From Flavobacteriales bacterium (GTDB lineage: Bacteria > Bacteroidota > Bacteroidia > NS11-12g > UBA955), in contig NSIB01000003.1 of NCBI GenBank assembly GCA_002737625.1, positions 1 through 47,448 of the forward strand: a stretch of DNA of 47,448 nucleotides, written 5' to 3'. Shown here piece after piece: positions 12,147 through 45,015 of the stretch. The stretch's first letter is position 1; every line of letters starts with the position of its first letter. The notes under the pieces are model-generated. The model was not told the DNA's origin, did no database searches, and worked only from the letters and a program-made list of their open reading frames with translations. Made by a program: the position numbers and the translations under genes.

Positions 12147-12154
12147 TATCTTTG
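12147..12154 (+). promoter_or_regulatory. Candidate -7 promoter box for mfd
   Basis: TATCTTTG is an exact TAnnTTTG match abutting the terminator hairpin; no clean -33 TTTG seen. Confidence 0.5.
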
Positions 12155-12183
12155 AGGCCCGGCGAAGCCGGGCCTCTTTTTTT
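12154..12183 (+). terminator. Intrinsic terminator after the transketolase operon
   Basis: GAGGCCCGGC-GAA-GCCGGGCCTC (10-bp perfect stem) followed by T7. Confidence 0.85.
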
Positions 12184-12205
12184 ACGGGGTAGTGAGCAAT
12201 ACACG

Positions 12206-15200
12206 ATGAATACGAGAGAAATTTTGGGTGCCTTTGCCCAAATCCAACCCATGCAAGCACTGTCGGCCGCGGCGGAGCACGCGGCCGAACCCATCTACCT
12301 CCAAGGGCTGGCTGGCTCGGGCTTCGCCCTCGCCACCGCCACCCTCTACGCTTCAATATCCCGTCCCATCATCGCAATCCTCCCCAACAAAGACGAAGCC
12401 CAATATTTTAAATCCGACCTCGAAAATCTCCTCGTCGGTGAATCCATCTATTTCCTCCCAGATTCCTTCCTCAAACCCTATAATGCCGCCCGTGAAAATG
12501 CCATGGGTGTGCAAGAACGTATCGAAACCCTCAATGCCCTTCGTAAAAATAACAAACGCATCTTCGTAACCTATGGCTCCGCCATAGCAGAATATGTGGT
12601 CGATAAAATTGAACTCGAAAAATCTTCCATCGATATCGCTAGAGGCCAAAATCTAGATACCGAATTTTTGATGGAATTTCTGGAAATCAATGGCTTTGAA
12701 CGACGGGATTTTGTGTTCGCTCCCGGTGAATTTAGCATCCGCGGGGGAATTGTCGACCTATTCAGTTTCGCCCACGAATTCCCCTTTCGCATAGAACTCG
12801 ATGGTGATATCATCGAAAGTATCCGTACGTTTGATGTCAACGACCAACTTTCCCTCAAAGAAATTGCCCATTTCTCGCTTCTCCCCAATATTCAAGATCA
12901 ACGCGATCAAGAAACCACAATATCCATTACCGATTACTTTGATCCTAAAACACTGGTTGTTGCGTTCGACCTTAGCTTTCAAATTGAAGAACTTGGCAAA
13001 GCCTGGGAAAAAGCCCTCCAAATCCATCAAGAAGCCGTTGATTTTGGCAGAGAAGTCATCCCCAAACACCCCAAACAAATTTGGAATACGCCCAAAGGCC
13101 TCATGTCGGCCCTACAGCCCTTCACTCAAATACATAATAGCGGCGCTAGACCCACCGGAAAAATTGAAATTATCGAATTCTTGCAACAGCCGCAACCGCT
13201 CTTCAAAAGGAATTTTTCGATGCTCACCGAATGGATGCAATCCAATAAAGCCGAAGGCCTATCAACACTTGTATTTAGTGAGAATAGCCGTCAGATAGAA
13301 CGACTCATTGCAATTTTAGCCGATACCCAGTCCCAAGTCAGCTTTGAACCCGTGTATCAGGGATTGTCGTCCGGATTTGTGGATCGCGACGTAAAAATTG
13401 CTTTTACAACAGAGCATCAGCTGTTTGATAAATATTATCGTCCGCGGGGACGACAAAAATATTCGTCGCAAACATCGCTCACGTTAAGAGAACTAAAACA
13501 CTTAAAACCCGGGGATTTTGTTACTCATATTGATCATGGCATCGGCAGATTTGCGGGCCTGGAGAAAATGGATGTTCACGGTGTAAAGCAGGAAGTGGTG
13601 CGCATCGTATACAAGGACAACGATTTACTCTATGTGTCTGTGAATAGTTTGCACAAAATAAGTAAATACACAGGAAAGGATGGCACACCCCCAAGCATGC
13701 ACAAGTTGGGGAGTCCACAGTGGGATAAACAGAAAAAGGCGACAAAAAAGAAGGTTAAAGATATTGCCCGAGAGTTGATTGCATTGTACGCAAAGCGGAA
13801 ATTACAGCAGGGATTTGCGTTTGGGCCAGACAATTATATGCAGATGGAGTTGGAAGCCAGCTTTTTTTATGAGGATACGCCGGATCAAGCCAAAGCGGTG
13901 GAGGATACAAAACGAGATATGGAATCTCCGCAGCCGATGGACCGATTGGTGTGTGGCGATGTGGGTTTCGGCAAAACAGAGGTCGCCATGCGCGCCGCAT
14001 TTAAAGCCGTTTGTGATAGTAAACAGGTGGCGGTTCTAGTGCCAACAACAATTTTAGCACAACAGCATTTCCGTTCATTCTCAAAGCGATTTGCGGGGTT
14101 TCCTATAACCGTGGATTATATAAACCGATTTAAATCGGCCAAGGAGCAAAAAGACACATTGGAGAAGGTGAAAGCGGGAAAAGTAGATGTGCTCATTGGT
14201 ACGCATCGTATTTTAGGCAAAGACATCGAGTTTAAAGATTTGGGGTTGATGATCATCGACGAAGAACAGAAATTTGGTGTGGCCGCCAAAGAGAAATTGA
14301 AGGAATTTAAAGTAAATGTGGATGCACTCACACTCACGGCTACACCCATACCGCGGACTTTGCACTTTAGCTTGATGGGAGCTCGGGATTTGTCTATTAT
14401 TAACACCCCACCGCCCAACCGTCAGCCTGTGCATACCGAATTACACATGTTCAACAAGGACTTAATTGCCGAGGCGGTTCAGCAAGAAATGGAACGGGGC
14501 GGACAGATCTTCTTTGTTCATAGCCGGGTGAAAGACATCCATGAGATGGCCAGAATTATTGGAGATCTGGTGCCTGGATGCAGGGTTTGTGTGGCTCATG
14601 GTCAGATGGAAGGACATGAATTGGAAGATGCGATGGTTCAGTTTATTGAGGGGGAGTTTGATGTACTCGTGGCAACAACCATTATTGAGAGTGGGTTGGA
14701 TATTCCCAATGCCAATACAATTATTATCAACAATGCGCACATGTTTGGTCTGAGTGATTTGCACCAAATGCGGGGTAGGGTGGGCCGTAGCAATACCAAG
14801 GCTTTCTGTTATTTGCTTTCACCTCCGGTATCTGTTTTGAGTGAGGATGCGCGGAAAAGATTGCGCACGTTGGAAGAATACAGTGAATTGGGCAGTGGGT
14901 TTCAGGTTGCGATGCGGGATTTGGATATCCGAGGGGCTGGAAATTTATTGGGCGGAGAGCAGTCTGGATTCATCAGCGAAATGGGGTTTGACATGTATCA
15001 TAAGATTTTGGATGAAGCGGTGAGGGAGTTAAAAAATGAAGAGTTTGATGCGTTGTTTGATCAACCCGACGATATCAGCAGCCGAGACTGTCAAGTAGAT
15101 ACCCAATTTGAAATGCTCATTCCATCGGAATACGTCACCCAAACCTCGGAACGATTGGCGTTGTACAGTGAATTATCAAATATTAATACGGAATTGGAAT

Positions 15201-15550
15201 TGCAGCGATTTGCAAACAATTTAAAAGATCGATTTGGTAAAATTCCAAATACGGTGGCGGCATTATTGGATACCGTTCGATTAAAATGGGCGGGCAAACA
15301 GCTTGGAATGGAGAAAATTTCACTCGGAAACGGTGGAATGCGTTGCTATTTTCCTGGCGATGCCAATGCGGCAGTATATCACAGCGACAGTTTTGTGGCC
15401 ATTATGGGTTTTGTTGCTAGCAATCCCAATAAGTTTAGCGTTAGACAAACCGATAAAGCGCTGATTGTGAGTGTGAAAGGGTTGGAAACGGTTTTCGAAG
15501 CGCTCCATGTATTGGGGGAATGGGACTTGCATCGGACAACAGAAATATAA
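12206..15550 (+). CDS. mfd: Transcription-repair coupling factor
   Basis: GEFSIRGGIVD, CarD-like HIDHGIGRF, CGDVGFGKTEVA, DEEQKFGV, TATPIPRT, QMRGRVGRS, DLDIRGAGNLLG. Start set at ATG 12206. Confidence 0.98.
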   Translation: MNTREILGAFAQIQPMQALSAAAEHAAEPIYLQGLAGSGFALATATLYASISRPIIAILPNKDEAQYFKSDLENLLVGESIYFLPDSFLKPYNAARENAMGVQERIETLNALRKNNKRIFVTYGSAIAEYVVDKIELEKSSIDIARGQNLDTEFLMEFLEINGFERRDFVFAPGEFSIRGGIVDLFSFAHEFPFRIELDGDIIESIRTFDVNDQLSLKEIAHFSLLPNIQDQRDQETTISITDYFDPKTLVVAFDLSFQIEELGKAWEKALQIHQEAVDFGREVIPKHPKQIWNTPKGLMSALQPFTQIHNSGARPTGKIEIIEFLQQPQPLFKRNFSMLTEWMQSNKAEGLSTLVFSENSRQIERLIAILADTQSQVSFEPVYQGLSSGFVDRDVKIAFTTEHQLFDKYYRPRGRQKYSSQTSLTLRELKHLKPGDFVTHIDHGIGRFAGLEKMDVHGVKQEVVRIVYKDNDLLYVSVNSLHKISKYTGKDGTPPSMHKLGSPQWDKQKKATKKKVKDIARELIALYAKRKLQQGFAFGPDNYMQMELEASFFYEDTPDQAKAVEDTKRDMESPQPMDRLVCGDVGFGKTEVAMRAAFKAVCDSKQVAVLVPTTILAQQHFRSFSKRFAGFPITVDYINRFKSAKEQKDTLEKVKAGKVDVLIGTHRILGKDIEFKDLGLMIIDEEQKFGVAAKEKLKEFKVNVDALTLTATPIPRTLHFSLMGARDLSIINTPPPNRQPVHTELHMFNKDLIAEAVQQEMERGGQIFFVHSRVKDIHEMARIIGDLVPGCRVCVAHGQMEGHELEDAMVQFIEGEFDVLVATTIIESGLDIPNANTIIINNAHMFGLSDLHQMRGRVGRSNTKAFCYLLSPPVSVLSEDARKRLRTLEEYSELGSGFQVAMRDLDIRGAGNLLGGEQSGFISEMGFDMYHKILDEAVRELKNEEFDALFDQPDDISSRDCQVDTQFEMLIPSEYVTQTSERLALYSELSNINTELELQRFANNLKDRFGKIPNTVAALLDTVRLKWAGKQLGMEKISLGNGGMRCYFPGDANAAVYHSDSFVAIMGFVASNPNKFSVRQTDKALIVSVKGLETVFEALHVLGEWDLHRTTEI

Positions 15551-15577
15551 AAATCTTTGTAGGAATCACGCCATAAA

Positions 15578-16408
15578 TTATATCTTTCTAATGCCAGTTT
15601 CTTCGATGATGATTGCCTTGGCTTTGTACAAAACGCCAACGGTTTGTTTGAAAGCTTTTTTACTCATTCCCAATTTCGATTGAATGAGATTCGCATCAGA
15701 TTTGTCGTGCAGTGCTAAAAATCCCCCCGCAGCGGTGATAGCCTCTAATACAGTATCGGACAGGGTACTCACTTTCTTATGTCCCATCGGGGTAAGAGAT
15801 ACATCTACGTGTCCATTCTCTCTAACCAATCGAACATAGCCTTTTAATTGATCGCCCATTTCAATTCGTTGAAAGACTTCGTTTTTGTAAATAATTCCCT
15901 GATGCTTTTGGTTGATAATGACTCTAAACCCAATTTCAGTTTCTTCAAAACACAATAAATCAACGGCGGTATTATAAAGTAAGTGTACGTCCGTTTTTTC
16001 GAGCCATTTGGAAATTTTTGTACTGGCTAACAGTCGATCAGTGACTTCGTCGCGATACAAATATGCTACAGAGTGCTCTCCCTCCACCAGTTTGCGATGT
16101 TGTTCTTTGAAAGGTACGAAAAGGTCTTTCTCCAAACCCCAATCCAAGAATGCACCTATCCCAGTCGCTGAAACCACTTCCAAACATGCGAATTGCCCGA
16201 TTTCAATCATCGGAACAACGGTAGTGGCTGTTAAGCGGTCTTCTGAATCTCTAAAAATGAAAACATTAATTACATCCCCTTCAATGGCCTCGGACGGACA
16301 AAATTTATTGGGTAGTAATACTTCTACTCCCATTTCATCAACCAAATACCAACCTTGAGGTGTATCGTGATGAAAGGTCAAATCAAGGAATAGGCCGGTC
16401 TGAATCAT
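15578..16408 (-). CDS. cvfB: CvfB/YitL family S1-domain RNA-binding protein
   Basis: EVLLPNK, VFIFRDSEDRL, GAFLDWGLEKDLFVPFKEQ, C-terminal winged helix GMSKKAFKQTVGVLYK. Start set at ATG 16408. Confidence 0.88.
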   Translation of the reverse strand: MIQTGLFLDLTFHHDTPQGWYLVDEMGVEVLLPNKFCPSEAIEGDVINVFIFRDSEDRLTATTVVPMIEIGQFACLEVVSATGIGAFLDWGLEKDLFVPFKEQHRKLVEGEHSVAYLYRDEVTDRLLASTKISKWLEKTDVHLLYNTAVDLLCFEETEIGFRVIINQKHQGIIYKNEVFQRIEMGDQLKGYVRLVRENGHVDVSLTPMGHKKVSTLSDTVLEAITAAGGFLALHDKSDANLIQSKLGMSKKAFKQTVGVLYKAKAIIIEETGIRKI

Positions 16409-16460
16409 ATCAATTTGCAAAAGTCGGGGTAAACTTTCACATTCACACGATAATAGATGT

Positions 16461-22475: not shown

Positions 22476-22507
22476 ATAAAGCGGGGCGCAATAGCGCCCC
22501 GCTTTAT
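22476..22507. terminator. 14-bp perfect stem-loop after the lipoprotein gene (probable terminator)
   Basis: ATAAAGCGGGGCGC-AATA-GCGCCCCGCTTTAT; U-tract is short. Confidence 0.6.
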
Positions 22508-22633: not shown

Positions 22634-24106
22634 ATGTCTACCCAAAACAATTCCAAAATCGCCACAGAAGGACTCACGTTTGATGATGTTCTTGTTGTTC
22701 CACGTTATTCTGAGGTTATGCCTCGCGACGTAAATACATCGGTTCAACTGACCCGCAATTTGCGCCTGAATATCCCTATTATGTCGGCCGCCATGGATAC
22801 CGTTACCGAAAGTGGCATGGCCATCGCAATGGCAAGGGAAGGGGGTATTGGCATCATTCATAAAAACATGACCATCGCCCGGCAGGCCGAGGAGGTGAAA
22901 AAGGTAAAACGATCTGAAAGTGGGATGATTATGGAGCCGGTTACATTGGGCGCGGATGCCGTTCTGCGAGAAGCGGTGAATTTGATGCGAGAACACAAAA
23001 TTGGTGGGATTCCGGTGGTAAATGAAAAGAATCAGTTGGTAGGGATTATCACGAATCGTGATTTGCGTTTCGAAAAGGATTTGGATAAAAAAGTGAGTGA
23101 CGTGATGACCCGTGAAAATTTAATCACGGCTGCGGTAGGTACAGACCTGAGAGGGGCGCAGGAGATTTTAGAGAAATACAAAATTGAGAAGTTGCCAATT
23201 GTAGATGTAGAGAATACATTGGTTGGGTTGATTACTTTTAAAGACATTCAAAAGGTAAAAAACCATCCAAAAGCCTGTAAGGATTCACATGGCCGTTTGG
23301 TTGTGGGGGCTGCGGTGGGTGTTACCGCCGATACGTTAGAGCGCGTGAGTGCTTTGGTTGCTGTGGGGGTGGATGTGATTGCGATTGATACTGCACACGG
23401 TCATTCGAGAGGTGTGATTAATGAAGTGAAGCGTGTAAAAACGGCTTTTCCTCAGCTTCAAATTATTGCGGGGAATATCGCCACGGGGGCGGCGGCGAAG
23501 GCCTTGGCCGAAGCCGGCGCAGATGCTGTTAAAGTGGGTGTGGGTCCAGGCAGTATTTGTACAACTAGAATTATTGCGGGTATCGGAATGCCTCAATTAA
23601 CGGCGTTGATGGAAGCGGCTGAGGCCTTGGAAGGCACCGGGGTTCCTGTGATTGCTGATGGGGGGATTCGTTACAGTGGCGATATCGTAAAGGCATTGGT
23701 TGCAGGTGCCAATGTGATTATGGCCGGTGGGCTGTTTGCTGGTACGGAAGAAGCACCCGGTGAAACTACTTTTTTTGAAGGTAGGAAAGTGAAAAGCTAT
23801 CGCGGAATGGGTAGCATCGAAGCGATGAAAGACGGGTCAAAAGATCGGTATTTTCAGGATGCCGAAGAAGAGGTTTCCAAACTGGTGCCCGAAGGGATTG
23901 TGGGCTCTGTGGCATATAAAGGACAGGTGTCTGAGGTGTTGTATCAGTTGGTTGGGGGAATTCGTGCGGGAATGGGCTATTGTGGTTCGGCCACTATAGA
24001 CGAGTTACAAACTTCAAAATTTGTCCGTATCACGAACGCAGGGATGAGAGAAAGTCATCCTCACGACGTGTCGATAACTCGCGAAGCGCCAAATTACAGT
24101 CGTTGA
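22634..24106 (+). CDS. guaB: IMP dehydrogenase
   Basis: [22 protein letters not shown] pair, [32 protein letters not shown]. Confidence 0.98.
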
Positions 24107-24186: not shown

Positions 24187-25305
24187 ATGCGGAAAGTAAA
24201 TTCTTTTTTTGAAGTAAATTTAGTCCTGGGATTGGGTTTCCTATTGATTTTGGCTGGTTGCGGTGCAATGGGCTCCAAGAGACATGGGTGCAAGGTGGAT
24301 ACGCATCTTTTAGATTCGCTTCTTGCATCGGGTTCCAATCAACCACCGGTGGCTCCTCTTCGGGTGTCGTTTTATAATTTGGAGAATTTATTTGATACGG
24401 TAGATGGTCCAAACGACGATACGGAGTTTTTGCCGAATTCGGCGAATGCATGGAACGGTGAGAGGTATAAGAGTAAGTTGCGGAATATGGCGCAGGTTAT
24501 TGATAGTATAGCACCTGACATTTTGGGATTGGTAGAATTAGAGAATGCTTTTGTTTTGGAGGATTTGCGTGCCAACAGTGTGGTGATGAAGGGGAAGTTT
24601 GAGATTGCGCATCGGGAATCTCCGGATTTAAGGGGTATTGATGTTGCGCTGATGTATAATGCGGAGTTATTTAGAATTTCTGGGATATGTATGATTCCAA
24701 TTACTTTGCCTGATGGTTATGCCACGCGGAGTATTATGCGGGTTCATTTGGTTGAGAAGGGCACGGGTGATTCTTTGGCGGTATTTATTAACCATTGGCC
24801 AAGTCGTCGCGGCGGTGCGGCCAGTGCGGCAAGCCGCATGGCCGCCGCCGCCGCTCTCTTGCAAAACATTCAATCTTTACCCAATCTACCCAATAATTAT
24901 ATCCTTTTGGGTGATTTTAACGATGATCCAGAAGATAAATCAATCACCGAGGGTCTCAATGCTGGTGATTCATATCACCCCATTGTCAATTTGGCTTTTC
25001 TTGCGCGCGCGAAAGACACTACCGTGGGCACCATTGCTTGGTATGATGGCTGGAATATGTTTGATCAAATCATGTTGAGTAGGGCCCTGTATTTTGCCAA
25101 CTTGCACAACAATGAAACACTGGCCAACAAACAAATTGCCGTTGCTGAGCCTCGTATCAACGTATATAAACGCCCTTGGATGCTTCAGCATGGAGGGAAA
25201 TACGATGGTTGGCCCTTGCGAACCTTTGCCGGTAAAAAATACATGAATGGGTATTCAGATCACTTGCCCGTCTATACAGACCTGGTCCTCGTGCATCGTC
25301 ATTAA
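24187..25305 (+). CDS. Endonuclease/exonuclease/phosphatase family lipoprotein
   Basis: Lipobox LAGC; FYNLENLFD, GLVELEN, SPDLRGIDVAL, NHWPSRRGG, LGDFND, WNMFDQI, GYSDHLPV. TATCTTTG box at 24172-24179. Confidence 0.9.
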   Translation: MRKVNSFFEVNLVLGLGFLLILAGCGAMGSKRHGCKVDTHLLDSLLASGSNQPPVAPLRVSFYNLENLFDTVDGPNDDTEFLPNSANAWNGERYKSKLRNMAQVIDSIAPDILGLVELENAFVLEDLRANSVVMKGKFEIAHRESPDLRGIDVALMYNAELFRISGICMIPITLPDGYATRSIMRVHLVEKGTGDSLAVFINHWPSRRGGAASAASRMAAAAALLQNIQSLPNLPNNYILLGDFNDDPEDKSITEGLNAGDSYHPIVNLAFLARAKDTTVGTIAWYDGWNMFDQIMLSRALYFANLHNNETLANKQIAVAEPRINVYKRPWMLQHGGKYDGWPLRTFAGKKYMNGYSDHLPVYTDLVLVHRH

Positions 25306-25309
25306 GCAA

Positions 25310-30076: not shown

Positions 30077-30106
30077 AAAAAGGGAGCCCATGGGCTCCCT
30101 TTTTTT
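30077..30106 (+). terminator. Intrinsic terminator after sucC
   Basis: AAAAAGGGAGCCCATGGGCTCCCTTTTT, a perfect 28-bp palindrome running into a T-tract. Confidence 0.85.
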
Positions 30107-38615: not shown

Positions 38616-38620
38616 AACAA

Positions 38621-39574
38621 TTGAAATCGTATTTTTCCCACGGTAAAATCATGCTTTGCGGCGAATATGCCGTCACAATTGGCATTGAGGCGTTGGCGAT
38701 TCCTGTTGTACCCGGTCAGTGGATGCATGTTTGGGAGTTTGATTCCCCTGGCGGCGGTGACCGATTGATTTGGGAGGCCAAAGAAAAAAATGGCAACACA
38801 TGGTTGAATGAGAGTTTCTCTTTGCCATTGGAAGTGATGGATGCGGCGGATGAAAAAAACAGCAGCGAAAGAGATCGCGACAGAAAAGTGCTTCATTCGA
38901 TGATTTCATTGGTGGAGGCGAGTTTTTGGAAGGCGGGGAAATCTTATCGCATAGAGACTCAATTGGAGTTTGAGCGCAGTAGCGGATTGGGTAGTTCCAG
39001 TACGATGGTCGCGAATTTTGCGAGATACGCAGGCTTGGATGCCCAGAAAGTGCAGCAAAACGTGTTTGGAGGCAGTGGGTACGACGTGGCTGTGGCAGAA
39101 TTGGGTAAAGGTTTGGTTTTTTGGAAAAATGGGGAAGACGCGAATTGGGATGCTTGGAAATTATCGCCCGAGCTAACCTCAAAGTGGAAAATCGTTTTTT
39201 TGGGAGAAAAGCAAAATAGCAGAAGTGCTTTGGACGATGTGAAAGGGAAACTAATAGAAATTCAGAAAGATGATTTTTTGATGCATCAGTTGCAACAAGT
39301 GTGTGCAGCGGTAAAATTGGCCAGTCAAGTCCCGATGTTGGAAGCGGGTTTGGAAATGTGGCAAGCGATTTTGGCGATGAGTTTGGGCTTGGAAACACCC
39401 TATCAGTATTTTAAATTTCAACCCACCAAAGGCGGTTTATGCAAGTGGTTGGGTGCTTGGGGTGGAGATATGTTATTGATCAACGAGATTTTTGCCGAGA
39501 GCGAGCAAGAAGCGTTAAAAAAATTCCAAACAGTGGCATGGAATGAGATAGTTGTGCAACAAAGTGTGTCGTAA
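38621..39574 (+). CDS. GYDIA-family GHMP kinase (mevalonate pathway kinase)
   Basis: HGKIMLCGEYAV, GLGSSST, GGSGYDVAVA, KQNSR, KWLGAWGGD; directly after HMG-CoA reductase. Confidence 0.85.
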   Translation: MKSYFSHGKIMLCGEYAVTIGIEALAIPVVPGQWMHVWEFDSPGGGDRLIWEAKEKNGNTWLNESFSLPLEVMDAADEKNSSERDRDRKVLHSMISLVEASFWKAGKSYRIETQLEFERSSGLGSSSTMVANFARYAGLDAQKVQQNVFGGSGYDVAVAELGKGLVFWKNGEDANWDAWKLSPELTSKWKIVFLGEKQNSRSALDDVKGKLIEIQKDDFLMHQLQQVCAAVKLASQVPMLEAGLEMWQAILAMSLGLETPYQYFKFQPTKGGLCKWLGAWGGDMLLINEIFAESEQEALKKFQTVAWNEIVVQQSVS

Positions 39575-39575
39575 T

Positions 39576-40655
39576 ATGAGGGAAATGGATAACAATTTTA
39601 CATCGATTCGTGTGGGTTACCAATGTCCATCGAACATCGCGTTGGTGAAATATTGGGGCAAAAAGGAAGGTGGGGTTCAATTGCCTGCCAATCCAAGTAT
39701 CAGTTGGAGCCTGGGAGATTTGCATGCAACCACAACAGTTGAGATGGTTCCACGCAAAGGCGAGCAAGCTTTTGTATTTACTTTGGGTGGTGTTTTGAAG
39801 CCATCATTCGAGCCTAAAATTGAAGCATTTTTGGGTAAAATCGCCAATGATTGTCCTTGGTTATCGGATTACATGCTTTTGATAGATTCGCAAAACAATT
39901 TCCCTCACGGAACCGGTATTGCCAGTTCTGCCGCAGGTTTTGGTGCCTTGAGTTTGTGTTTGGCGCATATCGAACAATTGCTTTTGGGAGATACTTCCTT
40001 GCAGACCTTGGTTGGAGGAATGAATTTTTGGAAACGCAGCAGTTATTTGTCGCGCATGGGCTCTGGCAGTGCTTGTAGGTCCATGTTTTCTCGACCTGCT
40101 GTTTGGGGCGAAACTCCGGCAGTTGCCGGAAGTAGCAATTTGTTTGCGGTGGAAATAGATGCTGAGGTACACCCCAGTTTATCCTATTGGAAAGATGTTG
40201 TTTTGATCGTAGACGATGGGGAAAAATCGGTGAGTAGTTCGGCGGGACATGCCTTGTTGACGAATCATCCTTATGCAGAAGCTCGGTTTGGTCAGGCGCA
40301 AAAGAACTTGGATGGCATCGTTTTGGCGATGAGAAATGGCGATGTTAAATCGTTTATTGAAATTGTGGAATCTGAAGCCCTGCAATTGCACAGTATGATG
40401 ATGACATCGATTCCGTATTATGTGCTTATGCGACCCAATACGTTGGCGATTATCGAACAAATTTGGCGTTTCCGCGAACAAACGGGACTGTCGATTTGCT
40501 TCACCTTAGATGCCGGGGCCAATGTTCACTTCCTTTACGATGGAAAAATCGAAGAGACAGTGATGAACTTTGTGAATAATACATTGTTACCTTATTGCAA
40601 AAATGGGCAGTATCTTTGCAGCGATATAGGTAAAAGCCCTGTTCAAATCATATAA
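39576..40655 (+). CDS. mvaD: Diphosphomevalonate decarboxylase
   Basis: PSNIALVKYWGK, NNFPHGTGIASSAAG, GSGSACRS, VSSSAGH, FTLDAGANVH. Start 39576 or 39585. Confidence 0.93.
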   Translation: MREMDNNFTSIRVGYQCPSNIALVKYWGKKEGGVQLPANPSISWSLGDLHATTTVEMVPRKGEQAFVFTLGGVLKPSFEPKIEAFLGKIANDCPWLSDYMLLIDSQNNFPHGTGIASSAAGFGALSLCLAHIEQLLLGDTSLQTLVGGMNFWKRSSYLSRMGSGSACRSMFSRPAVWGETPAVAGSSNLFAVEIDAEVHPSLSYWKDVVLIVDDGEKSVSSSAGHALLTNHPYAEARFGQAQKNLDGIVLAMRNGDVKSFIEIVESEALQLHSMMMTSIPYYVLMRPNTLAIIEQIWRFREQTGLSICFTLDAGANVHFLYDGKIEETVMNFVNNTLLPYCKNGQYLCSDIGKSPVQII

Positions 40656-41606
40656 ATGGGAGAAATGATTAAGGATTCACTTTATTACGCCAAGATTCTC
40701 TTGTTTGGCGAATATGGTATCATCGAAAATTCGATGGGTTTGAGCATTCCTTATCATTTTTTCAAAGGCAATTTTGATTTTGCGAAAGAGCCCAATGAAG
40801 TGCAGAAAAATTCCAACGAGAGCATCAAACAGTTCGTGTCTCATTTAGAGTGGTTGCGCGACACCGGAGGGCTTCCTTGCTCCTTAAATTTTGTTCAGTT
40901 GCAAACGGATATTCATTCGGGTTTGTATTTTGATAGTAGTATTCCACAAGGTTTCGGCGTGGGTAGTTCGGGTGCTTTGGTGGCCGCTTTGTATGCCAAG
41001 TATTCAGTATCGCCGTTGAAACAGTCTGATGTGATGGTTGGCGATAATTTGAAGAAACTCAAGTCTACACTGGCCACTATGGAATCGTTTTTTCATGGAA
41101 AAAGCTCTGGATTGGATCCGCTGATTTGTTATTTAAATTTGCCCATATTGGTTAAAGGTCAGGGCGATTTGGGTACTGTTGGTATTCCAACAGAAAATGC
41201 AGAGGGCAAGGGGGCTATCTTTTTATTGAATTCTGGTTCGCCAGGAAAAACCCAGAATATGGTTTCGATATTCTTGAATCGTTTGAAAGACGATGGATTT
41301 AGAAACATGGTGAAGACACAGTTGAAAAAACAAAACGACGATTGCGTGACATCGTTCTTGAAAGGTGATATTTCGCAGTTGTTTGGCCATTTGAAAGGAC
41401 TTTCTCAGTTGTTATTGGATAATTTCAGGCCTATGATTCCTGATCATTTTGAAAAGGTTTGGCGTGAAGGGATTGATAGCGGTGATTATTATTTGAAATT
41501 GTGTGGAAGTGGTGGTGGAGGATTTATATTGGGTTTTACCCAGGACTTTGAAAAAGCGCAATCCTTGTTGAAAGCGCATAAATTGCAGGTGATTTACAAA
41601 ATGTAA
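40656..41606 (+). CDS. Mevalonate/phosphomevalonate kinase family GHMP kinase
   Basis: AKILLFGEY, SSIPQGFGVGSSGALVAA, ESFFHGKSSGLDP, KLCGSGGGG. Possible internal promoter TATCTTTG at 40611-40618. Confidence 0.9.
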   Translation: MGEMIKDSLYYAKILLFGEYGIIENSMGLSIPYHFFKGNFDFAKEPNEVQKNSNESIKQFVSHLEWLRDTGGLPCSLNFVQLQTDIHSGLYFDSSIPQGFGVGSSGALVAALYAKYSVSPLKQSDVMVGDNLKKLKSTLATMESFFHGKSSGLDPLICYLNLPILVKGQGDLGTVGIPTENAEGKGAIFLLNSGSPGKTQNMVSIFLNRLKDDGFRNMVKTQLKKQNDDCVTSFLKGDISQLFGHLKGLSQLLLDNFRPMIPDHFEKVWREGIDSGDYYLKLCGSGGGGFILGFTQDFEKAQSLLKAHKLQVIYKM

Positions 41607-41610
41607 TCAC

Positions 41611-42510
41611 TTGATGCCAGGAATTCGAAAAAACCACATTACCAGATTCATGCTGTTATTGGGGATTGTACGATGGTACAACCTTGCTTTGATTGCCGCT
41701 TCTCAGTATTTGTTGTTCTGGCTCACATTTTCGCAGCATGAATTGTGGCGTGTGTTCTACGATGTTAAACTGCATTGCATCGTGGCAGCTAGCATTTTTT
41801 CTGTCGCCGCGGCCTTTATCATCAATGCCTTTTACGATGTTGACAAGGATTTGGTGAACAAGCCAAAGCAAGTGGTGATTGGGAAATTGTTGGGGGAGTC
41901 GAGTTTGCTCAATTTATACGTCGTCCTAAATTTATTGGCAGTAGCCTTTGCGATGATGGCCTCTGTGAAGGTGATGGTTTTTTTCCTGTGTTACACAGTA
42001 TTTTGTTGGTTTCACAGTCATAAATTGCAGAAATTGCCGGTGGTGAGAGAGGTATCGGCCTCCTTGTTAACGATGATTCCATTGCTCGCTATATGGTTTC
42101 ATTTTGGTCATTGGCATTGGGGCATGTTTTATTACATGGGTAGTTTGGCGATTTTATTGTTTACCAGAGAGGTGGTGAAGGATATGGCTGGACACAAGGG
42201 GAACTTGATTTTTGGGTATCAAACGGTTGTGGTTGCGGCTGGGATACGTCGTGCAAGATGGGGGTTGGTGGCAATGAATACGGGCTTTTTTGTGATGTAT
42301 TGGACGTTAAATTGGATTCAAATGGTAGATCCTGTTTTACCCAATTGGCATCCGGATTATTATTTGATTATCTCTGGAGTTTCGTTGTTCACCGCCTTTT
42401 GGGTTTCTTGGGCGATGTTTTTTATTCGAGATGATTCTAAAATTGTGGTAATGGATGCATTTTTAAAGTTGGGCGTGGTGATTCATTTGCTCAGTATCGT
42501 AACGCAGTAG
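41611..42510 (+). CDS. UbiA-family (DGGGP-synthase-like) membrane prenyltransferase
   Basis: VRWYNL, IINAFYDVDKDLVNKP, REVVKD, multiple TM helices. Confidence 0.85.
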   Translation: MMPGIRKNHITRFMLLLGIVRWYNLALIAASQYLLFWLTFSQHELWRVFYDVKLHCIVAASIFSVAAAFIINAFYDVDKDLVNKPKQVVIGKLLGESSLLNLYVVLNLLAVAFAMMASVKVMVFFLCYTVFCWFHSHKLQKLPVVREVSASLLTMIPLLAIWFHFGHWHWGMFYYMGSLAILLFTREVVKDMAGHKGNLIFGYQTVVVAAGIRRARWGLVAMNTGFFVMYWTLNWIQMVDPVLPNWHPDYYLIISGVSLFTAFWVSWAMFFIRDDSKIVVMDAFLKLGVVIHLLSIVTQ

Positions 42511-42552
42511 TTTTGGTGGGAGGGCTACGGATTTAATTTGTAACTTGCGATA

Positions 42553-45015
42553 GTGACGGAGATTCAGACCCTTTTTGCGCATGTGTTGGTGCCAGTGCCG
42601 GTGCCAAAGGCCTATACGTATCGGGTTCCTCACGATTGGAACGACTGGATTCATCAGGGTTTGAGGGTTGCGGTGCAATTTGGACCAAAGAAGATATATG
42701 CAGGAATTATTTTGGAGCTGAGTGATTCTCCACCGGAGGGTTATCAAGCTTCTTATATCTTGGATGTGTTGGACGATGCACCCATTGTGAATCACAAGCA
42801 ATTGCAGTTTTGGCGTTGGGTGGCCAAATATTATATGTGTTATTTGGGGGAGGTGATGGCTACTGCGTTGCCAGCGGGGTATCGACTTCAGAGTGAGACG
42901 AAGATTGTTTTGCATCCCGATGCAGATTTGGAAGCGATAAGTAGGACTGATGTTGAAGATTTGGAGTGGCAGATTTTGGAGTTGTTAGGGAAGAAGGATG
43001 GGATGTCGTTGGACGATATACATCAAAAGCTGGCGGTTAAGAATGTGCTGAAGCATGTTAAGTCGTTGTATTTAAGGGGTTTGGTGGTAATGGAGGAGGA
43101 GTTGAAGGAGAATTATCGACCTAAATATGAGGAGTTTTTAGAGTTGTGCAGTATTTGGGATGATTCGGAATTGGCAAATTCGAGTTTGAACGCGTTGGAG
43201 CGACGTGCACCGAAGCAGTATGAGGCGATTATGCATATTTTGGGGACGGGAAAGAGGGAGTTGACGGTGGAATCAATTGTGAAGGGATTTGAGATGGACA
43301 GGACGGTGCTGAAGCAGTTAGAGAAGAAGTCGTTGATAATGATTGTGAAGCGCCGCCGCGATCACCTTCAGGTGATCCGCGGCGGCGCGCAAGAATACCA
43401 ACTCACCGAATCTCAGTCGCGGGCCCTTGGAATCATTCGCGCTGGATTTGAAGAAAAACAGCCGGCCTTGCTTTACGGGGTTACGGGATCGGGTAAAACC
43501 CATGTGTATATGGAGTTGGTGAAGGAGACGTTGGCGGCGGGGAAACAGGTGCTTTATTTGTTGCCAGAGGTTGCACTAACGGAGCATATGGTGGCTCGGA
43601 TGGGTGCGTTTTTGCCGGTGGAAATTGGCGTTTGGCATCACTTTTATAGTTCTCACGAGAGGACGGAATTGTACGATCGGATATTGAAGGATCAAATCCA
43701 GTTTGTGGTGGGTACTAAAGGGGCGGTGTTTGCTCCTTTTTCTAATTTGGGGTTGATTGTGGTGGATGAGGAGCATGAATCAACGTATAAGCAGTTTGAT
43801 AAAAAGCCATTTTATCACGGTCGGGATTCGGCGTTTCAGTTGGCCAAGTATCATGGGGCCAATGTTTTGTTGGGTTCGGCTACGCCGAGTTATGAAATGC
43901 AGTTTGCTGTGCAGCAGCATCGTATGGTAATTGCCGAAATAACGGAGAAGTACGATGGCGGAAAACCGGCTGAGTTGATGTATTTGAATATCGGTGAGTT
44001 GAAGAAAACGGGTCAGATGAATTCGTTGTTTTCCGAGCCGGTGAGGATGGCCATTCAGAAGGCGATGGATGTGAAGCAGAAGGTGGTGGTGTATCACAAT
44101 CGAAAGGGGTATGTGCCTTATATTGAGTGTGGGGATTGTGGGTTGACAACGCAGTGCAAGCATTGTGATATTTCGATGACCTACTATAAGAGTTCAGACA
44201 ATCAGCGATGCAGTTATTGTGGGTTTCAGCAGCCGGTACCATCGAAATGTGTGGCCTGTGGTTCTCAGGATTTGAAGTTGAAGGGGACGGGCACGGAGAA
44301 GTTGGCGGAGGAATTGGGGCAGCTGTTTCCCAAGGCTAGGGTGGCGCGGTTTGACCAGCAGAGCATGCGGAAGCGGGATGATTTTCAGAATATTTTGACG
44401 GCGTTTGAGCGGGGTGATATTGATATTTTGGTGGGGACGCAGTTGTTATCGAAGGGGATTGATATAGAGAATATCGGCTTGGTTGTGGTGCCGGATGCGG
44501 ATATGTTGTTGCACATTCCTGATTTTAGGAGTCATGAACGGGCATTTCAGCAACTGCAACAATTGAGTGGTAGGATAGGGCGCCGCGCGGAGCGCGGCGT
44601 GATGATGTTACAGACATATCAACCGGAACATGAAGTATTGAAGTCCCTGAAAGCCGATGATTACCAAGGGTTGATGCAAGTGGAAATGGAGCAGCGCGAA
44701 GCCTTCGGCTATCCTCCTTACACAAAGTTGATTAAGGTGGATGTGAAGCACATAGATGCACAAGTGGCGACCGAGGCCAGCCGTTGGCTGGCCGACCAAT
44801 TGCGAAAGCAATTGGGGAACCTGGTGCTGGGGCCCCAGGTTCCTTCGGTCGCCCGCATAAAAAATCGATTCATCCAGCAAATTGTCATCAAGGTCCCCCG
44901 AGAAACCGCCCAACTGAACGCCGCAAAATTCCTATTGCAACAAGTTCGTGAAGCGGCCTTGGCTCACAACAGTTGGCGTTCGGTTCGCATCGATATTATC
45001 ATCGATCCCAATTAA
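42553..45015 (+). CDS. priA: Primosomal protein N' (replication restart helicase)
   Basis: YTYRVP, GVTGSGKT, DEEHE, GSATPS, four CxxC pairs, GTEKL, PDFRSHER, GRIGR, YPPY, DPN end. Confidence 0.97.
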   Translation: MTEIQTLFAHVLVPVPVPKAYTYRVPHDWNDWIHQGLRVAVQFGPKKIYAGIILELSDSPPEGYQASYILDVLDDAPIVNHKQLQFWRWVAKYYMCYLGEVMATALPAGYRLQSETKIVLHPDADLEAISRTDVEDLEWQILELLGKKDGMSLDDIHQKLAVKNVLKHVKSLYLRGLVVMEEELKENYRPKYEEFLELCSIWDDSELANSSLNALERRAPKQYEAIMHILGTGKRELTVESIVKGFEMDRTVLKQLEKKSLIMIVKRRRDHLQVIRGGAQEYQLTESQSRALGIIRAGFEEKQPALLYGVTGSGKTHVYMELVKETLAAGKQVLYLLPEVALTEHMVARMGAFLPVEIGVWHHFYSSHERTELYDRILKDQIQFVVGTKGAVFAPFSNLGLIVVDEEHESTYKQFDKKPFYHGRDSAFQLAKYHGANVLLGSATPSYEMQFAVQQHRMVIAEITEKYDGGKPAELMYLNIGELKKTGQMNSLFSEPVRMAIQKAMDVKQKVVVYHNRKGYVPYIECGDCGLTTQCKHCDISMTYYKSSDNQRCSYCGFQQPVPSKCVACGSQDLKLKGTGTEKLAEELGQLFPKARVARFDQQSMRKRDDFQNILTAFERGDIDILVGTQLLSKGIDIENIGLVVVPDADMLLHIPDFRSHERAFQQLQQLSGRIGRRAERGVMMLQTYQPEHEVLKSLKADDYQGLMQVEMEQREAFGYPPYTKLIKVDVKHIDAQVATEASRWLADQLRKQLGNLVLGPQVPSVARIKNRFIQQIVIKVPRETAQLNAAKFLLQQVREAALAHNSWRSVRIDIIIDPN
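43350..43388. other. Intragenic GC-rich hairpin (17-bp stem, one bulged C)
   Basis: GCGCCGCCGCG-ATCACC-TTCA-GGTGAT-c-CGCGGCGGCGC read directly. Confidence 0.85.
44766..44853. other. Intragenic four-way cloverleaf (closing stem plus three hairpins)
   Basis: Perfect Watson-Crick stems of 9, 8, 8 and 9 bp joined by 0-2 nt linkers; pairings are given in the findings. Confidence 0.85.

Follow-up and report, generated by a model that had tools for sequence, protein, structure and literature searches.

The window analysed, a 47,448-nt stretch of contig NSIB01000003.1, comes from a MAG (G000; 1.46-Mb assembly, 73.6% complete) of a genus of uncultured freshwater Flavobacteriales. All the inverted repeats listed in the initial annotation were located in it (Table 1), and all of these sites lie within intact, Pfam-supported genes: mfd, IMPDH (guaB), an Exo_endo_phos_3 nuclease (EEP family) and priA. 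Site energies were obtained by folding with DNA parameters, and the skew step is the left minus the right value over 300-nt flanks, excluding the hairpin. Folding of every 60-nt segment of the window, moved along by 10 nt, gave a mean of -4.2 (sd 2.4); the lowest energies are those of the EEP site, which ranks first with -25.2, and of two priA sites, and these three folds exceed every intergenic terminator in stability. The coding hairpins of the window have no T run behind them, and no Rfam family was matched within the window. The hairpin upstream of mfd has a C-GAA-G cap in common with them, but it is intergenic and lies downstream of the ORF at 11138-12094.

Table 1. Features of the window and their folding energies and skew steps.
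Feature	Coordinates	Strand	Structure	dG (kcal/mol)	Skew step	Remarks
Terminator-like hairpin	12154..12176	+	GAGGCCCGGC-GAA-GCCGGGCCTC followed by a T run			Intergenic, upstream of mfd
mfd coding hairpin	12263..12288		9-bp perfect stem TCGGCCGCG/CGCGGCCGA, 8-nt spacer with inner GC-GGA-GC mini-hairpin	-13.6	0.63 (mfd range 0.61-0.63)	
mfd second, weaker fold	12312..12335		GGGC-TTC-GCCC core			Encodes conserved LAGSGFALA motif
mfd combined fold	12263..12335		Includes the second fold	-21.2		
guaB weak inverted repeat	23489..23520			-11.5	-0.05	Judged outside the system
EEP-family nuclease hairpin	24809..24854		Nested stems CGGCGG-T-GCGGCCA / TGCGGC-AA-GCCGCA / TGGCCGC-CGCCG	-24.6	0.48	
priA hairpin 1	43350..43388		11-bp GC stem and 6-7-bp inner stem, one bulge	-23.1		
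priA hairpin 2	44581..44599		CGCCGCGC-GGA-GCGCGGCG, 8-bp stem, GGA triloop	-11.6	0.39	
priA four-way junction	44766..44853		88 nt, 8-9-bp closing stem, three hairpins with GTT, GAAA and 9-nt loops	about -40 (-39.9 to -40.6)		
priA composition footprint	42350..45853 (approximate)		About 1 kb on each side			Extent taken from the genome-wide profile and per-site steps

Concerning the listed repeats, those of EEP, priA and mfd proved to be real members of the system, whereas that of guaB is not special. It was rejected because it shows no skew step and its ordinary fold is equally stable in the hairpin-poor genomes G012 and G017 (-10.6 and -11.4). At guaB the peptide is fully conserved while the third positions change freely.

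Of the 16 genus orthologs aligned over the mfd site, 14 retain the hairpin, and the EEP core persists in 13 of 15 at 73-81% local identity. Both structures are absent from G012 and G017, where the EEP peptide also differs (RRSGESSVANRVIAASIL versus RRGGAASAASRMAAAAAL). G000 has T-A as the outermost mfd pair where all the others have G-C, both changes being nonsynonymous (A to S / A to E), and the mfd spacer is inverted in G013, matching 7 of the 8 bases of an exact inversion. In priA, which encodes 820 aa and is ungapped in 18 genus orthologs, hairpin 1 differs at 0 of 39 bases in L012-L014 and at 1 of 39 in L009-L011, although these genes are only 73-75% identical; it is decayed in L008 and L017 and absent from L015 and L016. 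Hairpin 2 is kept in the G000 clade and is weakened or lost elsewhere. The junction is identical at 87 of its 88 bases in L008 and L017 (gene identity 77-78%, flanks diverged), while L009-L014 have its first hairpin only and L015 and L016 none. Among close relatives, six of the eight distinct changes in the junction fall in loops or junctions and the other two affect edge pairs (in L007 the outermost one, in L018 the first one of the third hairpin), and 2 of 72 stem columns vary. The third-position skew step at hairpin 1 is 0.36-1.12 in carriers and -0.06 to 0.35 in non-carriers; at the junction it is 0.68-0.94 where the structure is full, 0.49-0.63 where it is partial and -0.33 to 0.42 where there is none. 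Over 300-nt flanks, the priA steps are 0.33, 0.39 and 0.43.

The proposal that this element is chromosome-wide, defined by structure and written through synonymous and permissive codons was borne out. Perfect-stem hairpins deep within ORFs (custom ORF caller) were counted over the whole assembly and compared with 10 gene-wide synonymous shuffles and with 20-codon block shuffles. At or below -18 kcal there are 23 hairpins, versus 3.4 in block shuffles and 0 in gene-wide shuffles, where none of the 10 runs gave a single one. At or below -14 the 48 observed compare with 12.8 and 3.4 (maximum 6), respectively, and at or below -10 the 146 observed show no excess over the 162 of the gene-wide shuffles. 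These results show far more stable coding hairpins than codon-preserving shuffles permit. Orthologs keep the same length, and their arms contain some residue changes, conservative or even non-conservative. As had been noticed in the window, the sites have no common primary sequence, and they form no repeat family. On the other hand, a special tie to genes acting on DNA was not supported, the strongest sites of the genome being in unrelated genes (a ddl-like ligase, trpG, a DUF4159 protein, a WD40 protein, a rhodanese, a glycosyltransferase and others). The hairpins are clustered, with 9 gaps below 200 nt versus 0.5 expected, and have no fixed spacing.

The peptides encoded at hairpins are conserved motifs of the host proteins, with Ala (3.3x), Arg (2.3x), Pro (2.1x) and Gly (1.7x) over-represented in them. 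This enrichment would agree with a chance by-product of Ala/Gly/Arg-rich stretches in GC-rich codons, and the weak guaB site belongs to this kind. However, the shuffles keep both the protein and the codon usage, perfect stems of 20-22 bp containing AT are present in G000, and relatives encode identical peptides without hairpins. These observations refute chance as a general explanation, and its probability is considered close to nil.

Regarding their form, 55 of 82 hairpins have 3-nt loops; among these 55, the loop reads GNA or the complementary TNC in 44, a strong enrichment of the mini-hairpin motif, and the closing pair is C-G in 48. The typical hairpin is a GC-rich stem with such a closing pair and a GNA/TNC triloop. 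The claim of special mini-hairpin loops was thereby confirmed and generalised. A GNA triloop closed by a C-G pair is a DNA motif. Complementarity mirrored just outside the stems is 21-30%, versus 22-28% in a shifted control, and the helix resumes past the first mismatch in 1 of the 82 hairpins. The stems are thus shown to end abruptly, as binary elements that are perfect rather than merely stable. Codon phases are 21/13/21, and the hairpins display no sense-strand or wobble bias.

The hairpins could instead act in the transcript, through its stability, RNase processing, translation pausing or attenuation. They are located within transcribed regions, stable loops are present, among them the GNRA-like GAAA, and RNA-library contigs cover the priA hairpins, although such contigs cannot prove transcription. 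Nevertheless, the loop orientation ignores the coding strand (24 GNA loops are sense and 20 antisense), and boundary pairs G-T and A-C number 13 and 14, with no sense-strand G-U tolerance. Furthermore, the C-G-closed GNA triloop is described for DNA (PMC3201870, PMC13037366), the window sites have no T run behind them and the window no Rfam match, as indicated above, and the change in composition extends 1 kb to both sides of the hairpins. Transcription adds almost nothing to skew in this genome. A DNA-level reading fits better, and a role as RNA seems improbable.

The switch from G-rich to C-rich sequence first noticed in the window turned out to be a general and exclusive property of strong hairpins. 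The left-minus-right skew over 300-nt flanks is +0.245 +/- 0.023 (n=80), versus -0.017 in 1348 controls, and the upstream skew exceeds the downstream one at 84-90% of the sites. The third-position plot that the initial annotation proposed gives a step of about 0.45, independent of gene orientation and the strongest of the codon positions. From 0.176 adjoining the hairpin, the half-step of skew declines to about 0.09 at a distance of 500 nt and to about 0.02 past 1 kb, so the footprint is a zone of roughly two kilobases centred on the hairpin, G-rich and then C-rich on both strands. Among intragenic steps of at least 0.4, a fold of -12 or below lies within 80 nt at 17 of 29 G-to-C steps and at 0 of 38 C-to-G steps (Fisher 1.5e-8). 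Across orthologs, presence of the step follows that of the hairpin at 5 of 6 loci, and orthologs without a hairpin do not have it; trpG has no third-position step. The third-position skew of the genome has a transcription part of about 0.01 and a replication part of 0.22, the direction of replication being inferred from skew. The composition pattern recurs in G018. In the flanks G is up by 0.09, A down by 0.05 and C down by 0.04, with T unchanged. These shifts are not those of simple extra cytosine deamination, and they look replication-like only if a GC3 rise is added. Polarised substitutions lent no support to the explanation favoured below and, if anything, suggest that the skew is relaxing in the G000 clade, parsimony being biased here.

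The polarity of the footprint fits the "fork barrier or cleavage/recombination site" mentioned among the possible roles in the initial annotation. Its leading idea, a priming or primosome-assembly signal of the phage G4 / phiX174 ssi type used on the lagging strand or in restart, is on the contrary very unlikely. The GCGNAGC/GCGAAAGC caps resemble those of known ssi hairpins, and the GNA loop in G000 is mostly on the G-rich strand, which is the lagging-strand template (32 of 44). However, at a fixed priming site exposure would be lowest in the template flank 5' of the site and highest in the 3' flank, predicting a C-to-G switch, and the strong steps display the opposite polarity without exception, which therefore argues against this role. 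In addition, the strand bias is not repeated in G018 (G-rich strand in 3 of 10), and the hairpins are clustered, not spaced.

As for the origin of the arms, the EEP, ddl, trpG and DUF4159 orthologs that lack the hairpin align gap-free, and the WD40 outgroups differ by one codon. A check of orthologs for compensatory changes, also proposed at the outset, revealed double changes in trpG (T-A to C-G), ddl (C-G to T-A), DUF4159 (G031 contributing three pairs and G015 one), WD40 (two pairs, both from G016, with a W to R change among them) and mfd. Clustered rewrites of one arm were found in the ddl 5' arm of G000, with three changes within 4 nt, and in the DUF4159 5' arm relative to G002. Judged from these alignments, the arms are shown to co-evolve. 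Close species differ in their hairpins, which are freely acquired, extended and lost. The WD40 hairpin is common to G016 and absent from G013 and G008, which group with G016 in priA identity, and this hints at a spread by recombination. Arm conversion is neither fast nor complete, because in hairpin-keeping orthologs 18 of 174 pairs are disrupted in at least one sequence and a strict filter leaves only 2 covarying. In the same orthologs stem variability is 22/348 versus 439/1541 in the flanks, a comparison that is partly circular because the filter conditions on hairpin retention.

Rickettsia palindromic elements are hairpin-forming DNA located inside reading frames and translated. The in-frame insertion of mobile palindromes, either like these or of the intragenic REP/REPIN type, could be considered here since such elements are known in other bacteria (PMC3733652). 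Against it, lengths equal those of hairpin-less orthologs, there is no repeat family, GTAG and CGTC tags occur at only 2 and 4 of 173 hairpin feet, no Y1 transposase (RAYT) was found in 5 of 5 genus genomes, and the peptides are the host proteins' own motifs. These tests refute mobile-repeat insertion for G000, and it is regarded as extremely unlikely; the hairpins are shown to be neither insertions, repeats nor RNA-family members.

Coding palindromes are a property of one sub-clade of the genus, which spells dozens of perfect hairpins within ordinary protein-coding genes. The excess was found in G000 and in G018 (529 kb; 19 versus 2.8 expected at or below -14, and 7 versus 0.2 at or below -18) and was not seen in six sampled relatives. 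Six genomes of the hairpin clade have an operon encoding SbcD-like and SbcC-like proteins; none was found in G012, in G017 or among 111 genomes that represent 22 other genera in the order. This co-occurrence would agree with selected DNA cis-elements, that is, useful programmed sites of fork pausing, gaps or breaks that start recombination or restart and that a clade-specific SbcCD/Mre11-Rad50-like nuclease might process. The exact conservation of the priA and EEP hairpins over about 25% nucleotide divergence, the motif residues changed to keep pairing (in WD40 and mfd), the complexity of the priA junction and the WD40 distribution are on the same side, and frequent breaks with recombination would suit the polar footprint and the rise in GC3. 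But hairpins come and go among close species, cluster without fixed spacing in unrelated genes and have perfect stems, which selection for stability does not need. Moreover, the nuclease link is a single evolutionary event, no copy was found in G010 (92% complete), which has hairpins, and an independent lineage with a 38%-identical homolog has no excess in 100 kb (0 versus 0.8 expected at or below -14). Selected elements are hence a possible, though rather doubtful, explanation.

The strand-composition flip at perfect coding hairpins speaks for a process at the DNA level, in which stalling or breakage goes with self-copying, and chance, an RNA signal and a jumping repeat all fit less well. Self-perpetuating structural elements are favoured here over selected signals, and we would give an even chance to coding palindromes maintained by template switching and acting as replication barriers or break sites. 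One arm would be copied from the other by intrastrand template switching, through which hairpins would be born, lengthened and kept perfect, and selection on the protein would merely decide which copies survive. In single-stranded DNA during replication the hairpin would fold and either block synthesis, leaving a gap, or be cut and resected. The flank 5' of it on each strand would then spend extra time single-stranded and in repair, and this exposure could write a replication-like G>C/T>A asymmetry and a small GC3 rise into synonymous sites. The clustering would be explained because repair synthesis would favour further template switching. Since the arms carry hallmarks of template switching, selection for function would not be required to keep these elements. 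As a counterpoint, priA and EEP hairpins with 0-1 changes at about 74% gene identity also fit selection for function, and many separate changes are needed to build the 88-nt junction.

Several known systems resemble these hairpins in part. In the mitochondria of Nematomorpha (2019, PMC6649704), perfect inverted repeats are likewise described within intact coding genes, with conserved protein encoded by both arms; they are perfect or absent and are gained and lost between species, and their authors propose active arm conversion via template switching and a parasitic nature. Those repeats are organellar and reach 284 bp, whereas the present ones are in a bacterial chromosome, have arms of up to 22 bp and GC-rich stems with C-GNA-G caps, and show a polar 1-kb footprint and multi-hairpin junctions, which the cited sections of that study do not mention. 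In Proteobacteria, perfect inverted repeats are reported as over-abundant and conserved above expectation, as here, imperfect ones being preferentially corrected to perfect and then conserved via template switching (Lavi et al. 2018, PMC5941160). The described hallmarks of this process, homogenised arms and inverted spacers (PMC8604942), are also seen here. The Proteobacteria study deals with non-coding repeats only and sets coding ones aside, while the present elements occupy ORFs at the price of amino-acid changes, belong to a single clade and are accompanied by a skew footprint. In E. coli, palindromes fold into hairpins on the leading-strand as well as the lagging-strand template during replication, SbcCD, a Mre11/Rad50-type nuclease, cuts them and recombination repairs the break (Azeroglu et al. 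2014, PMC4245961); hairpins on both templates give the two-sided polarity needed for the footprint. Those palindromes were engineered and measure 460-480 bp, and the cited portions of that study include neither cleavage of natural hairpins nor an evolutionary footprint; here natural hairpins of 20-50 nt are linked to a nuclease only by co-occurrence. Intragenic REP (PMC3733652) and Rickettsia palindromic elements, as described, also place translated hairpin DNA in frames, but they are repeated, mobile and inserted and add residues, whereas each hairpin here is unique, uninserted and re-encodes the host protein's sequence. Finally, the d(GCGNAGC)/d(GCGAAAGC) mini-hairpins, described as an extra-stable DNA motif (PMC13037366, PMC3201870), have the same cap that dominates here (44/55 loops, 48/55 closing pairs); they are a thermodynamic motif and not a genomic system.

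The window belongs to an assembly (G000) of 1.46 Mb in 61 contigs, with 42.7% GC and 73.6% completeness. The inverted repeats that the initial annotation placed inside reading frames were all present as described, within intact genes with full Pfam support (mfd, IMP dehydrogenase, the Exo_endo_phos_3 nuclease of the EEP family, and priA). The three most stable 60-nt folds of the window are all intragenic, the window mean being -4.2 kcal/mol (sd 2.4), and every intergenic terminator of the window is weaker than these three. A local-fold scan also found, in priA, a four-way junction of 88 nt in which a closing stem encloses three hairpins. Judged by eye and within the window, no intragenic site has a T run right after the stem; among the hairpins checked in this way, the run was seen only at one ordinary intergenic hairpin. 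The repeat in guaB, already described as weaker than the others, reaches -11.5 kcal/mol and shows no skew step, and its stability is the same in relatives without such hairpins; it was excluded from the system on these grounds. Regarding the neighbourhood, the window opens with rRNA genes, and the reading frame that overlaps the 3' end of priA may have its true start further downstream.

Features of the window and of related sequences, with DNA folding energies where computed
Feature	Sequence	Positions	Energy (kcal/mol)	Remark
3' end of 23S rRNA gene, then 5S rRNA gene	window	1-346		
Terminator-like hairpin, intergenic	window	12154-12176		ordinary; T run present
Terminator-like hairpin, intergenic	window	22476-22507		
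Stable 60-nt fold, intragenic	window	24801-24860	-25.2	DNA parameters
Terminator-like hairpin, intergenic	window	30077-30104		
Stable 60-nt fold, intragenic	window	43341-43400	-24.3	DNA parameters
Four-way junction in priA	window	44766-44854	-40.6	local-fold scan
Stable 60-nt fold, intragenic	window	44791-44850	-22.1	DNA parameters
Reading frame downstream of priA	window	44948-46204		GTG start as listed; 68-nt overlap with priA (44948-45015)
Second DnaE-type polymerase gene of G000 (L094)	contig C25	633-3659		~980 aa; three adjacent perfect hairpins at 1244-1369
11-bp intragenic hairpin, congener G012	locus L048	12761-12785		skew step 0.23
The same hairpin, congener G017	locus L055	4615-4639		skew step 0.32
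SbcD-like/SbcC-like operon, G031	contig C54 (locus L236)	6396-9991		
SbcD-like/SbcC-like operon, G005	contig C42 (locus L233)			

To place these sites in the whole genome, our own ORF calling (1196 ORFs covering 94.5% of the assembly) was combined with a scan for perfect stems with loops of 3-20 nt, scored by nearest-neighbour stacking. A hairpin counted as deep when it kept a distance of 90 nt or more to the start of its ORF and of 30 nt or more to the end, and the controls were 10 gene-wide synonymous shuffles and, additionally, shuffles within 20-codon blocks. At or below -12, -14, -16, -18 and -20 kcal/mol, the assembly holds 82, 48, 31, 23 and 16 deep hairpins, versus 27.4, 3.4, 0.8, 0 and 0 after gene-wide shuffling and 38.1, 12.8, 5.9, 3.4 and 2.1 after block shuffling. 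The block-shuffle counts are higher because many hairpins survive this treatment intact. There is no excess at -10 (146 observed, 162 shuffled), and therefore the excess is confined to strong hairpins. Folds of this strength are not common in codon-preserving shuffles (23 versus none at or below -18), so the first outcome that would have refuted the initial annotation did not occur.

The longest perfect stems (15-22 bp) are found in trpG and dprA and in the genes of a ddl-like ligase, a DUF4159 protein, a WD40 protein, a rhodanese, a second DnaE-type polymerase and a glycosyltransferase, among others. As the strongest sites lie in such unrelated genes, the link with DNA metabolism suggested by the window is due to chance, as the initial annotation had allowed. 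Both arms of these repeats encode conserved protein in intact coding sequences, for example GPGPG in TrpG, HSVNAL in a WD40 repeat and the active-site loop of the rhodanese, which the hairpin spans. Ala, Arg, Pro and Gly are enriched in the peptides that hairpins encode. The second DnaE-type polymerase gene carries three hairpins in a row, and in several relatives it shows split matches or in-frame stops near residues 142-156.

Concerning their anatomy, 55 of the 82 deep hairpins have 3-nt loops, and 44 of these triloops are GNA or its complement TNC (expected 12.5%), while 48 are closed by a 5'-C...G-3' pair. The same holds in G018, a second hairpin-rich genome, with GNA/TNC loops in 11 of 14 and C-G closure in 11 of 14. 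The C-GNA-G cap is an extra-stable DNA mini-hairpin (PMC13037366, PMC3201870), the motif that the initial annotation had named. GNA lies on the sense strand in 24 cases and on the antisense strand in 20. The loops fall in the three codon phases 21, 13 and 21 times, the first mismatch past the stem is G-T in 13 cases and A-C in 14, and we see no trace of RNA-level constraint on the hairpins. The stems have sharp ends: outside them, mirrored complementarity matches that of the control, and the helix resumes past the first mismatch in only 1 of 82. Some composite elements carry single bulges. Hairpins are also clustered, with 9 of 46 gaps shorter than 200 nt versus 0.5 expected. The intergenic terminator-like hairpins of G000 have a C-G closing pair in 28 of the 32 with 3-nt loops; the GNA loop is frequent among them and lies on the G-rich strand in 16 of 18. 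They also sit at a G-to-C step, as expected between convergent genes.

Two known classes of palindromic element were considered. In-frame palindromic insertions (RPE-like) would add residues, and none are added: PriA has 820 aa and aligns without gaps in 18 orthologs of the genus with or without hairpins, and the EEP nuclease, trpG, ddl and DUF4159 sites also align gap-free to their orthologs, the WD40 outgroups differing by one codon. A REP/REPIN family would share its sequence. In an all-against-all comparison, the 173 hairpins at or below -12 share only short GC-rich words and the long arms are unique, as had been noted for the window. REP foot tags are rare (of the 173 hairpins, 2 have GTAG and 4 have CGTC at the foot), and the Y1 (HUH) transposase PF01797 was found in none of five genomes of the genus, 91-100% complete and other than G000. 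Both classes were rejected for these hairpins. An Rfam search of the window at gathering thresholds matched only the 23S end and the 5S rRNA.

The initial annotation had also placed the hairpins at switches from a G-rich to a C-rich strand. With the hairpin itself left out and flanks of 300 nt, the left-minus-right GC skew is +0.245 +/- 0.023 (n=80), versus -0.017 at 1348 random intragenic points. The step persists without the hairpin, which discards the tautology that G-rich and C-rich arms would create it. It is present for genes on both strands, and no orientation is needed because a G-then-C step looks identical from the two strands. At third codon positions of genes co-oriented with replication, the skew is +0.52 upstream and +0.10 downstream (baseline +0.23); in the remaining genes it is +0.02 and -0.47 (baseline -0.21). 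Codon positions 1 and 2 show a far smaller step, and 84-90% of the sites have the same sign. The half-step falls from 0.176 in the first 100 nt to ~0.09 at 500 nt and ~0.02 beyond 1 kb, and a parallel T>A step of ~0.05 surrounds the hairpins. In G018 the step is 0.185 +/- 0.035, positive at 93% of sites.

Several ordinary causes of skew were weighed. From the gene baselines, the third-position skew has a replication component of 0.22 and a transcription component of ~0.01; therefore, transcription cannot cause the step. Regarding local composition, 17 of 29 intragenic G-to-C steps of at least 0.4 have a fold at or below -12 within 80 nt, versus none of 38 C-to-G steps (Fisher 1.5e-8) and ~1% of random points; composition alone is insufficient, because a C-then-G boundary would favour pairing equally. 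Extended imperfect palindromy of the flanks could also produce a step, and none was found. Moreover, orthologs with and without a given hairpin could be compared. The step follows the hairpin across orthologs of a given protein, except for trpG, which has no third-position step. The second outcome that would have refuted the initial annotation, no average skew switch at such hairpins genome-wide, therefore did not occur either.

Third-position skew step in orthologs with and without the hairpin
Site	With hairpin	Without hairpin
priA hairpin 1	0.36-1.12	-0.06 to 0.35
priA junction	0.68-0.94 (full); 0.49-0.63 (partial)	-0.33 to 0.42
EEP nuclease	0.62-0.94	0.14-0.25
ddl	0.23-0.87	-0.52 to 0.24
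DUF4159	0.57-0.81	0.12

The base composition behind the step was resolved at third positions. Within 300 nt 5' of the hairpin, G, C, A and T amount to 0.308, 0.179, 0.234 and 0.279, the strand-symmetrised baseline being 0.218 for G and C and 0.282 for A and T; in G018 the shift of this flank is +0.075 for G, -0.046 for C, -0.03 for A and 0 for T. As T shows no increase, the footprint cannot be put down simply to extra cytosine deamination. On the leading strand as a whole, the third-position values are G 0.269, C 0.170, T 0.312 and A 0.249, and the footprint would combine a replication-type keto skew, ~1.3 times the genome-wide difference between leading and lagging strands, with a GC3 rise of 3-5 points. 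Polarised substitutions counted around seven sites, by a parsimony that is biased and uses distant outgroups, were C>T 14, G>A 40, T>C 33 and A>G 21 upstream, and 24, 17, 22 and 28, respectively, downstream.

Ortholog alignments showed that nucleotide conservation is coextensive with the structures. Hairpin 1 of priA has no change in 39 positions in the ortholog sequences L012-L014 and one in L009-L011, in a gene only 73-75% identical; it has decayed in L008 and L017 and is absent from L015 and L016. The four-way junction, on the other hand, is identical at 87 of 88 bases in L008 and L017, with a gene identity of 77-78% and differences that begin within a few bases outside it, and only its first hairpin is found in L009-L014. 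Among close relatives, 6 of the 8 distinct changes in this structure affect loop or junction positions and the other 2 affect edge pairs, and 2 of 72 stem columns vary. The EEP hairpin core is kept in 13 of 15 orthologs; in the hairpin-poor congeners G012 and G017, both the hairpin and its Ala/Gly-rich peptide are replaced. Hairpins have been gained and lost between related species at priA, trpG, ddl, DUF4159 and WD40.

Compensatory changes, which the initial annotation had proposed to look for, were detected at several sites. In trpG a T-A pair alternates with C-G, with a Q to R replacement, and in ddl C-G becomes T-A in four relatives. DUF4159 has three compensatory pairs in G031 and one in G015, both relatives with orthologs, and WD40 has two in another, G016, one of which makes the W of the repeat an R. 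In mfd the outer pair, T-A in G000, is G-C in every other ortholog, and each of the two changes is nonsynonymous. Arms have also been rewritten as a block: in G000, three changes within 4 nt of one ddl arm extend the stem from 16 to 22 bp and alter two residues, and the 5' arm of DUF4159 is rewritten relative to the ancestral-looking ortholog of G002. One spacer inversion was seen: the 8-nt spacer of mfd in G013 matches the reverse complement of the spacer in all others at 7 of 8 bases. Arm homogenisation and spacer inversion are reported as hallmarks of template switching between the arms of inverted repeats (PMC8604942, PMC5941160). Fast or complete conversion is not favoured by the 174 pairs examined in hairpin-keeping orthologs, of which 18 have lost pairing in one or more sequences and just 2 show covariation under a strict filter. 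Variation affects 22 of 348 stem columns, 7 of 48 unpaired columns and 439 of 1541 flank columns, a comparison that is partly circular because only orthologs that retain the hairpin pass the filter.

The WD40 hairpin allele is common to G016 (L199) and the G000 clade and is not found in G008 and G013 (L200, L202), which group with G016 by priA identity. Its region is 86% identical, versus 68% in the flanks, a sequence pattern that may reflect a short segment transferred by recombination.

The excess is restricted to part of the genus: in six relatives of 1.41 Mb combined, there is no deep hairpin at or below -16. An 11-bp intragenic hairpin is conserved between the congeners G012 and G017. The hairpin process may operate at a low level outside the rich clade; in G012, G017 and G027 the samples are small, with few hairpin sites for skew steps, mixed with terminators.

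Deep hairpins in G018 and in six relatives (expected numbers in brackets)
Genome	Relationship	Sequence scanned	≤ -14	≤ -16	≤ -18
G018	hairpin clade, ~74% priA nucleotide identity	529 kb	19 (2.8)	14	7 (0.2)
G012	congener	535 kb	2 (1.0)	0	0
G017	congener	151 kb	1	0	0
G033	same family	200 kb	0	0	0
G036	same family	200 kb	2	0	0
G020	sister family	160 kb	0	0	0
G027	sister family	160 kb	1	0	0

The hairpins are real and occur in independent assemblies. Those of priA are present in contigs from runs of three other studies, one of them identical across 43350-43388, and the unitigs from these runs often stop at or inside hairpins; neither molecule ends nor joints are visible in these contigs, and they give no sign of transcription. 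Likewise, in other metagenome-assembled genomes, contigs end exactly at or inside the orthologous hairpins of EEP, ddl and trpG. Since contigs break at hairpins, assemblies probably under-count them. Contigs broken in this way are L037 (end of G002:C7), L040, L036 and L039 (G031:C1), and contigs C62 and C53 of G013, C123 and C51 of G006, and C64 of G008; in G031, NN lies within a duplicated arm of the EEP hairpin, with an apparent frame break.

Among candidate causal genes, an SbcD/Mre11-like phosphoesterase (385-388 aa) adjoins an SbcC/Rad50-like ATPase (813 aa) in an ordinary chromosomal context. This operon is present in G018, G003, G016, G008, G005 and G031, and was not found in G012, G017, G010 (92% complete) or G000 (73.6% complete), nor in 111 genomes from 22 other genera of the order. 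Within the order (121 genomes), it was found only in the hairpin-rich part of the genus; in the wider phylum, 3 of 400 further genomes have a homolog 33-38% identical, and the PADLOC matches of the pair are weak. The nuclease family alone is not sufficient as a cause, given that one of the three, G346, of an independent lineage, has a 38%-identical homolog and no hairpin excess in 100 kb. The association with the clade amounts to a single evolutionary event and can serve as a lead but does not test the link. The second DnaE-type polymerase was rejected as a cause, since it was not found in the hairpin-poor G012 and G017 but is present in G020 and G027, also hairpin-poor. Loss of exonuclease VII does not discriminate by hairpin status, its large subunit PF02601 being found in 1 of 10 genomes of the order regardless of it. 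PF02601 was detected in the Bacteroides thetaiotaomicron control.

Regarding the mechanism, the polarity of the skew suggests that, on each strand, the 5' flank of the hairpin would behave as over-exposed template. A hairpin in the template could block a polymerase coming from the template 3' side and leave the 5' side unreplicated; alternatively, a break at the hairpin followed by 5'-to-3' resection could leave 3' tails on both sides. Both situations are textbook and yield this polarity on both strands, which does not distinguish a gap from a break. In E. coli, palindromes are reported to form hairpins on the two template strands in the course of replication, where SbcCD cleaves them (PMC4245961). 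Deviation is somewhat stronger in the 5' flank on the G-rich strand, at +0.26 to +0.30, than in the opposite flank, at -0.13 to -0.23, which would suit hairpins that fold more often on the lagging-strand template. GNA lies on the G-rich strand in 32 of 44 deep hairpins of G000 and 16 of 18 intergenic ones (significant) and in 3 of 10 in G018 (pooled 35 of 54, p=0.04); the replication-strand preference of the loop seen in G000 was not reproduced in G018 and is tentative.

The initial annotation is partly borne out, in its structure-defined DNA element and its skew switch, and the sites of the window are confirmed as a local view of a clade-wide phenomenon. As to its function, the skew polarity favours a barrier or a cleavage site, and disfavours the priming or primosome-assembly role, because a fixed lagging-strand priming site would be expected to give the opposite step. 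A bolder possibility, which we regard as improbable, is that hairpins and the clade-specific Mre11/Rad50-like nuclease form programmed, structure-defined sites of chromosomal breaks or gaps, a bacterial counterpart of recombination hotspots. Dozens of sites would then lie in essential genes, from which they could not be deleted, and would be cut or stalled in each replication round, leading to recombination between sisters or strains and to a polar mutational scar ~2 kb wide. The recombination so driven would account for the GC3 rise and, possibly, for the spread of hairpin alleles between species.

If the main reading, that of a DNA element acting as a barrier or cleavage site, is right, a DNA-structure process systematically overwrites the reading frames of a free-living bacterial lineage. 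Conserved motifs would pay for this with residue replacements, and code degeneracy would be spent on a use other than translation. The polar, distance-decaying footprint at synonymous sites is an in vivo record of the effect of a small hairpin on replication or repair, readable in an uncultured organism and searchable in any genome. Hairpins can be recoded synonymously, which makes the question of whether a palindrome is selfish or useful directly testable. This question and the polar footprint are the points most worth following.

In a literature search that covered few subscription journals and no supplements, nothing was found on a genome-wide excess of coding palindromes in any bacterial lineage, on a C-GNA-G cap as the rule for them, or on a polar composition footprint around bacterial hairpins. 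Perfect short inverted repeats in bacteria are over-abundant and conserved and have been ascribed to template switching; that study dealt with non-coding DNA only (PMC5941160), whereas the hairpins of G000 are coding. The nearest published case is that of the coding palindromes of Nematomorpha mitochondria, read by its authors as actively converted and possibly parasitic (PMC6649704): there, as here, the repeats are perfect and intragenic, both arms are coding, and their presence is binary and dynamic.
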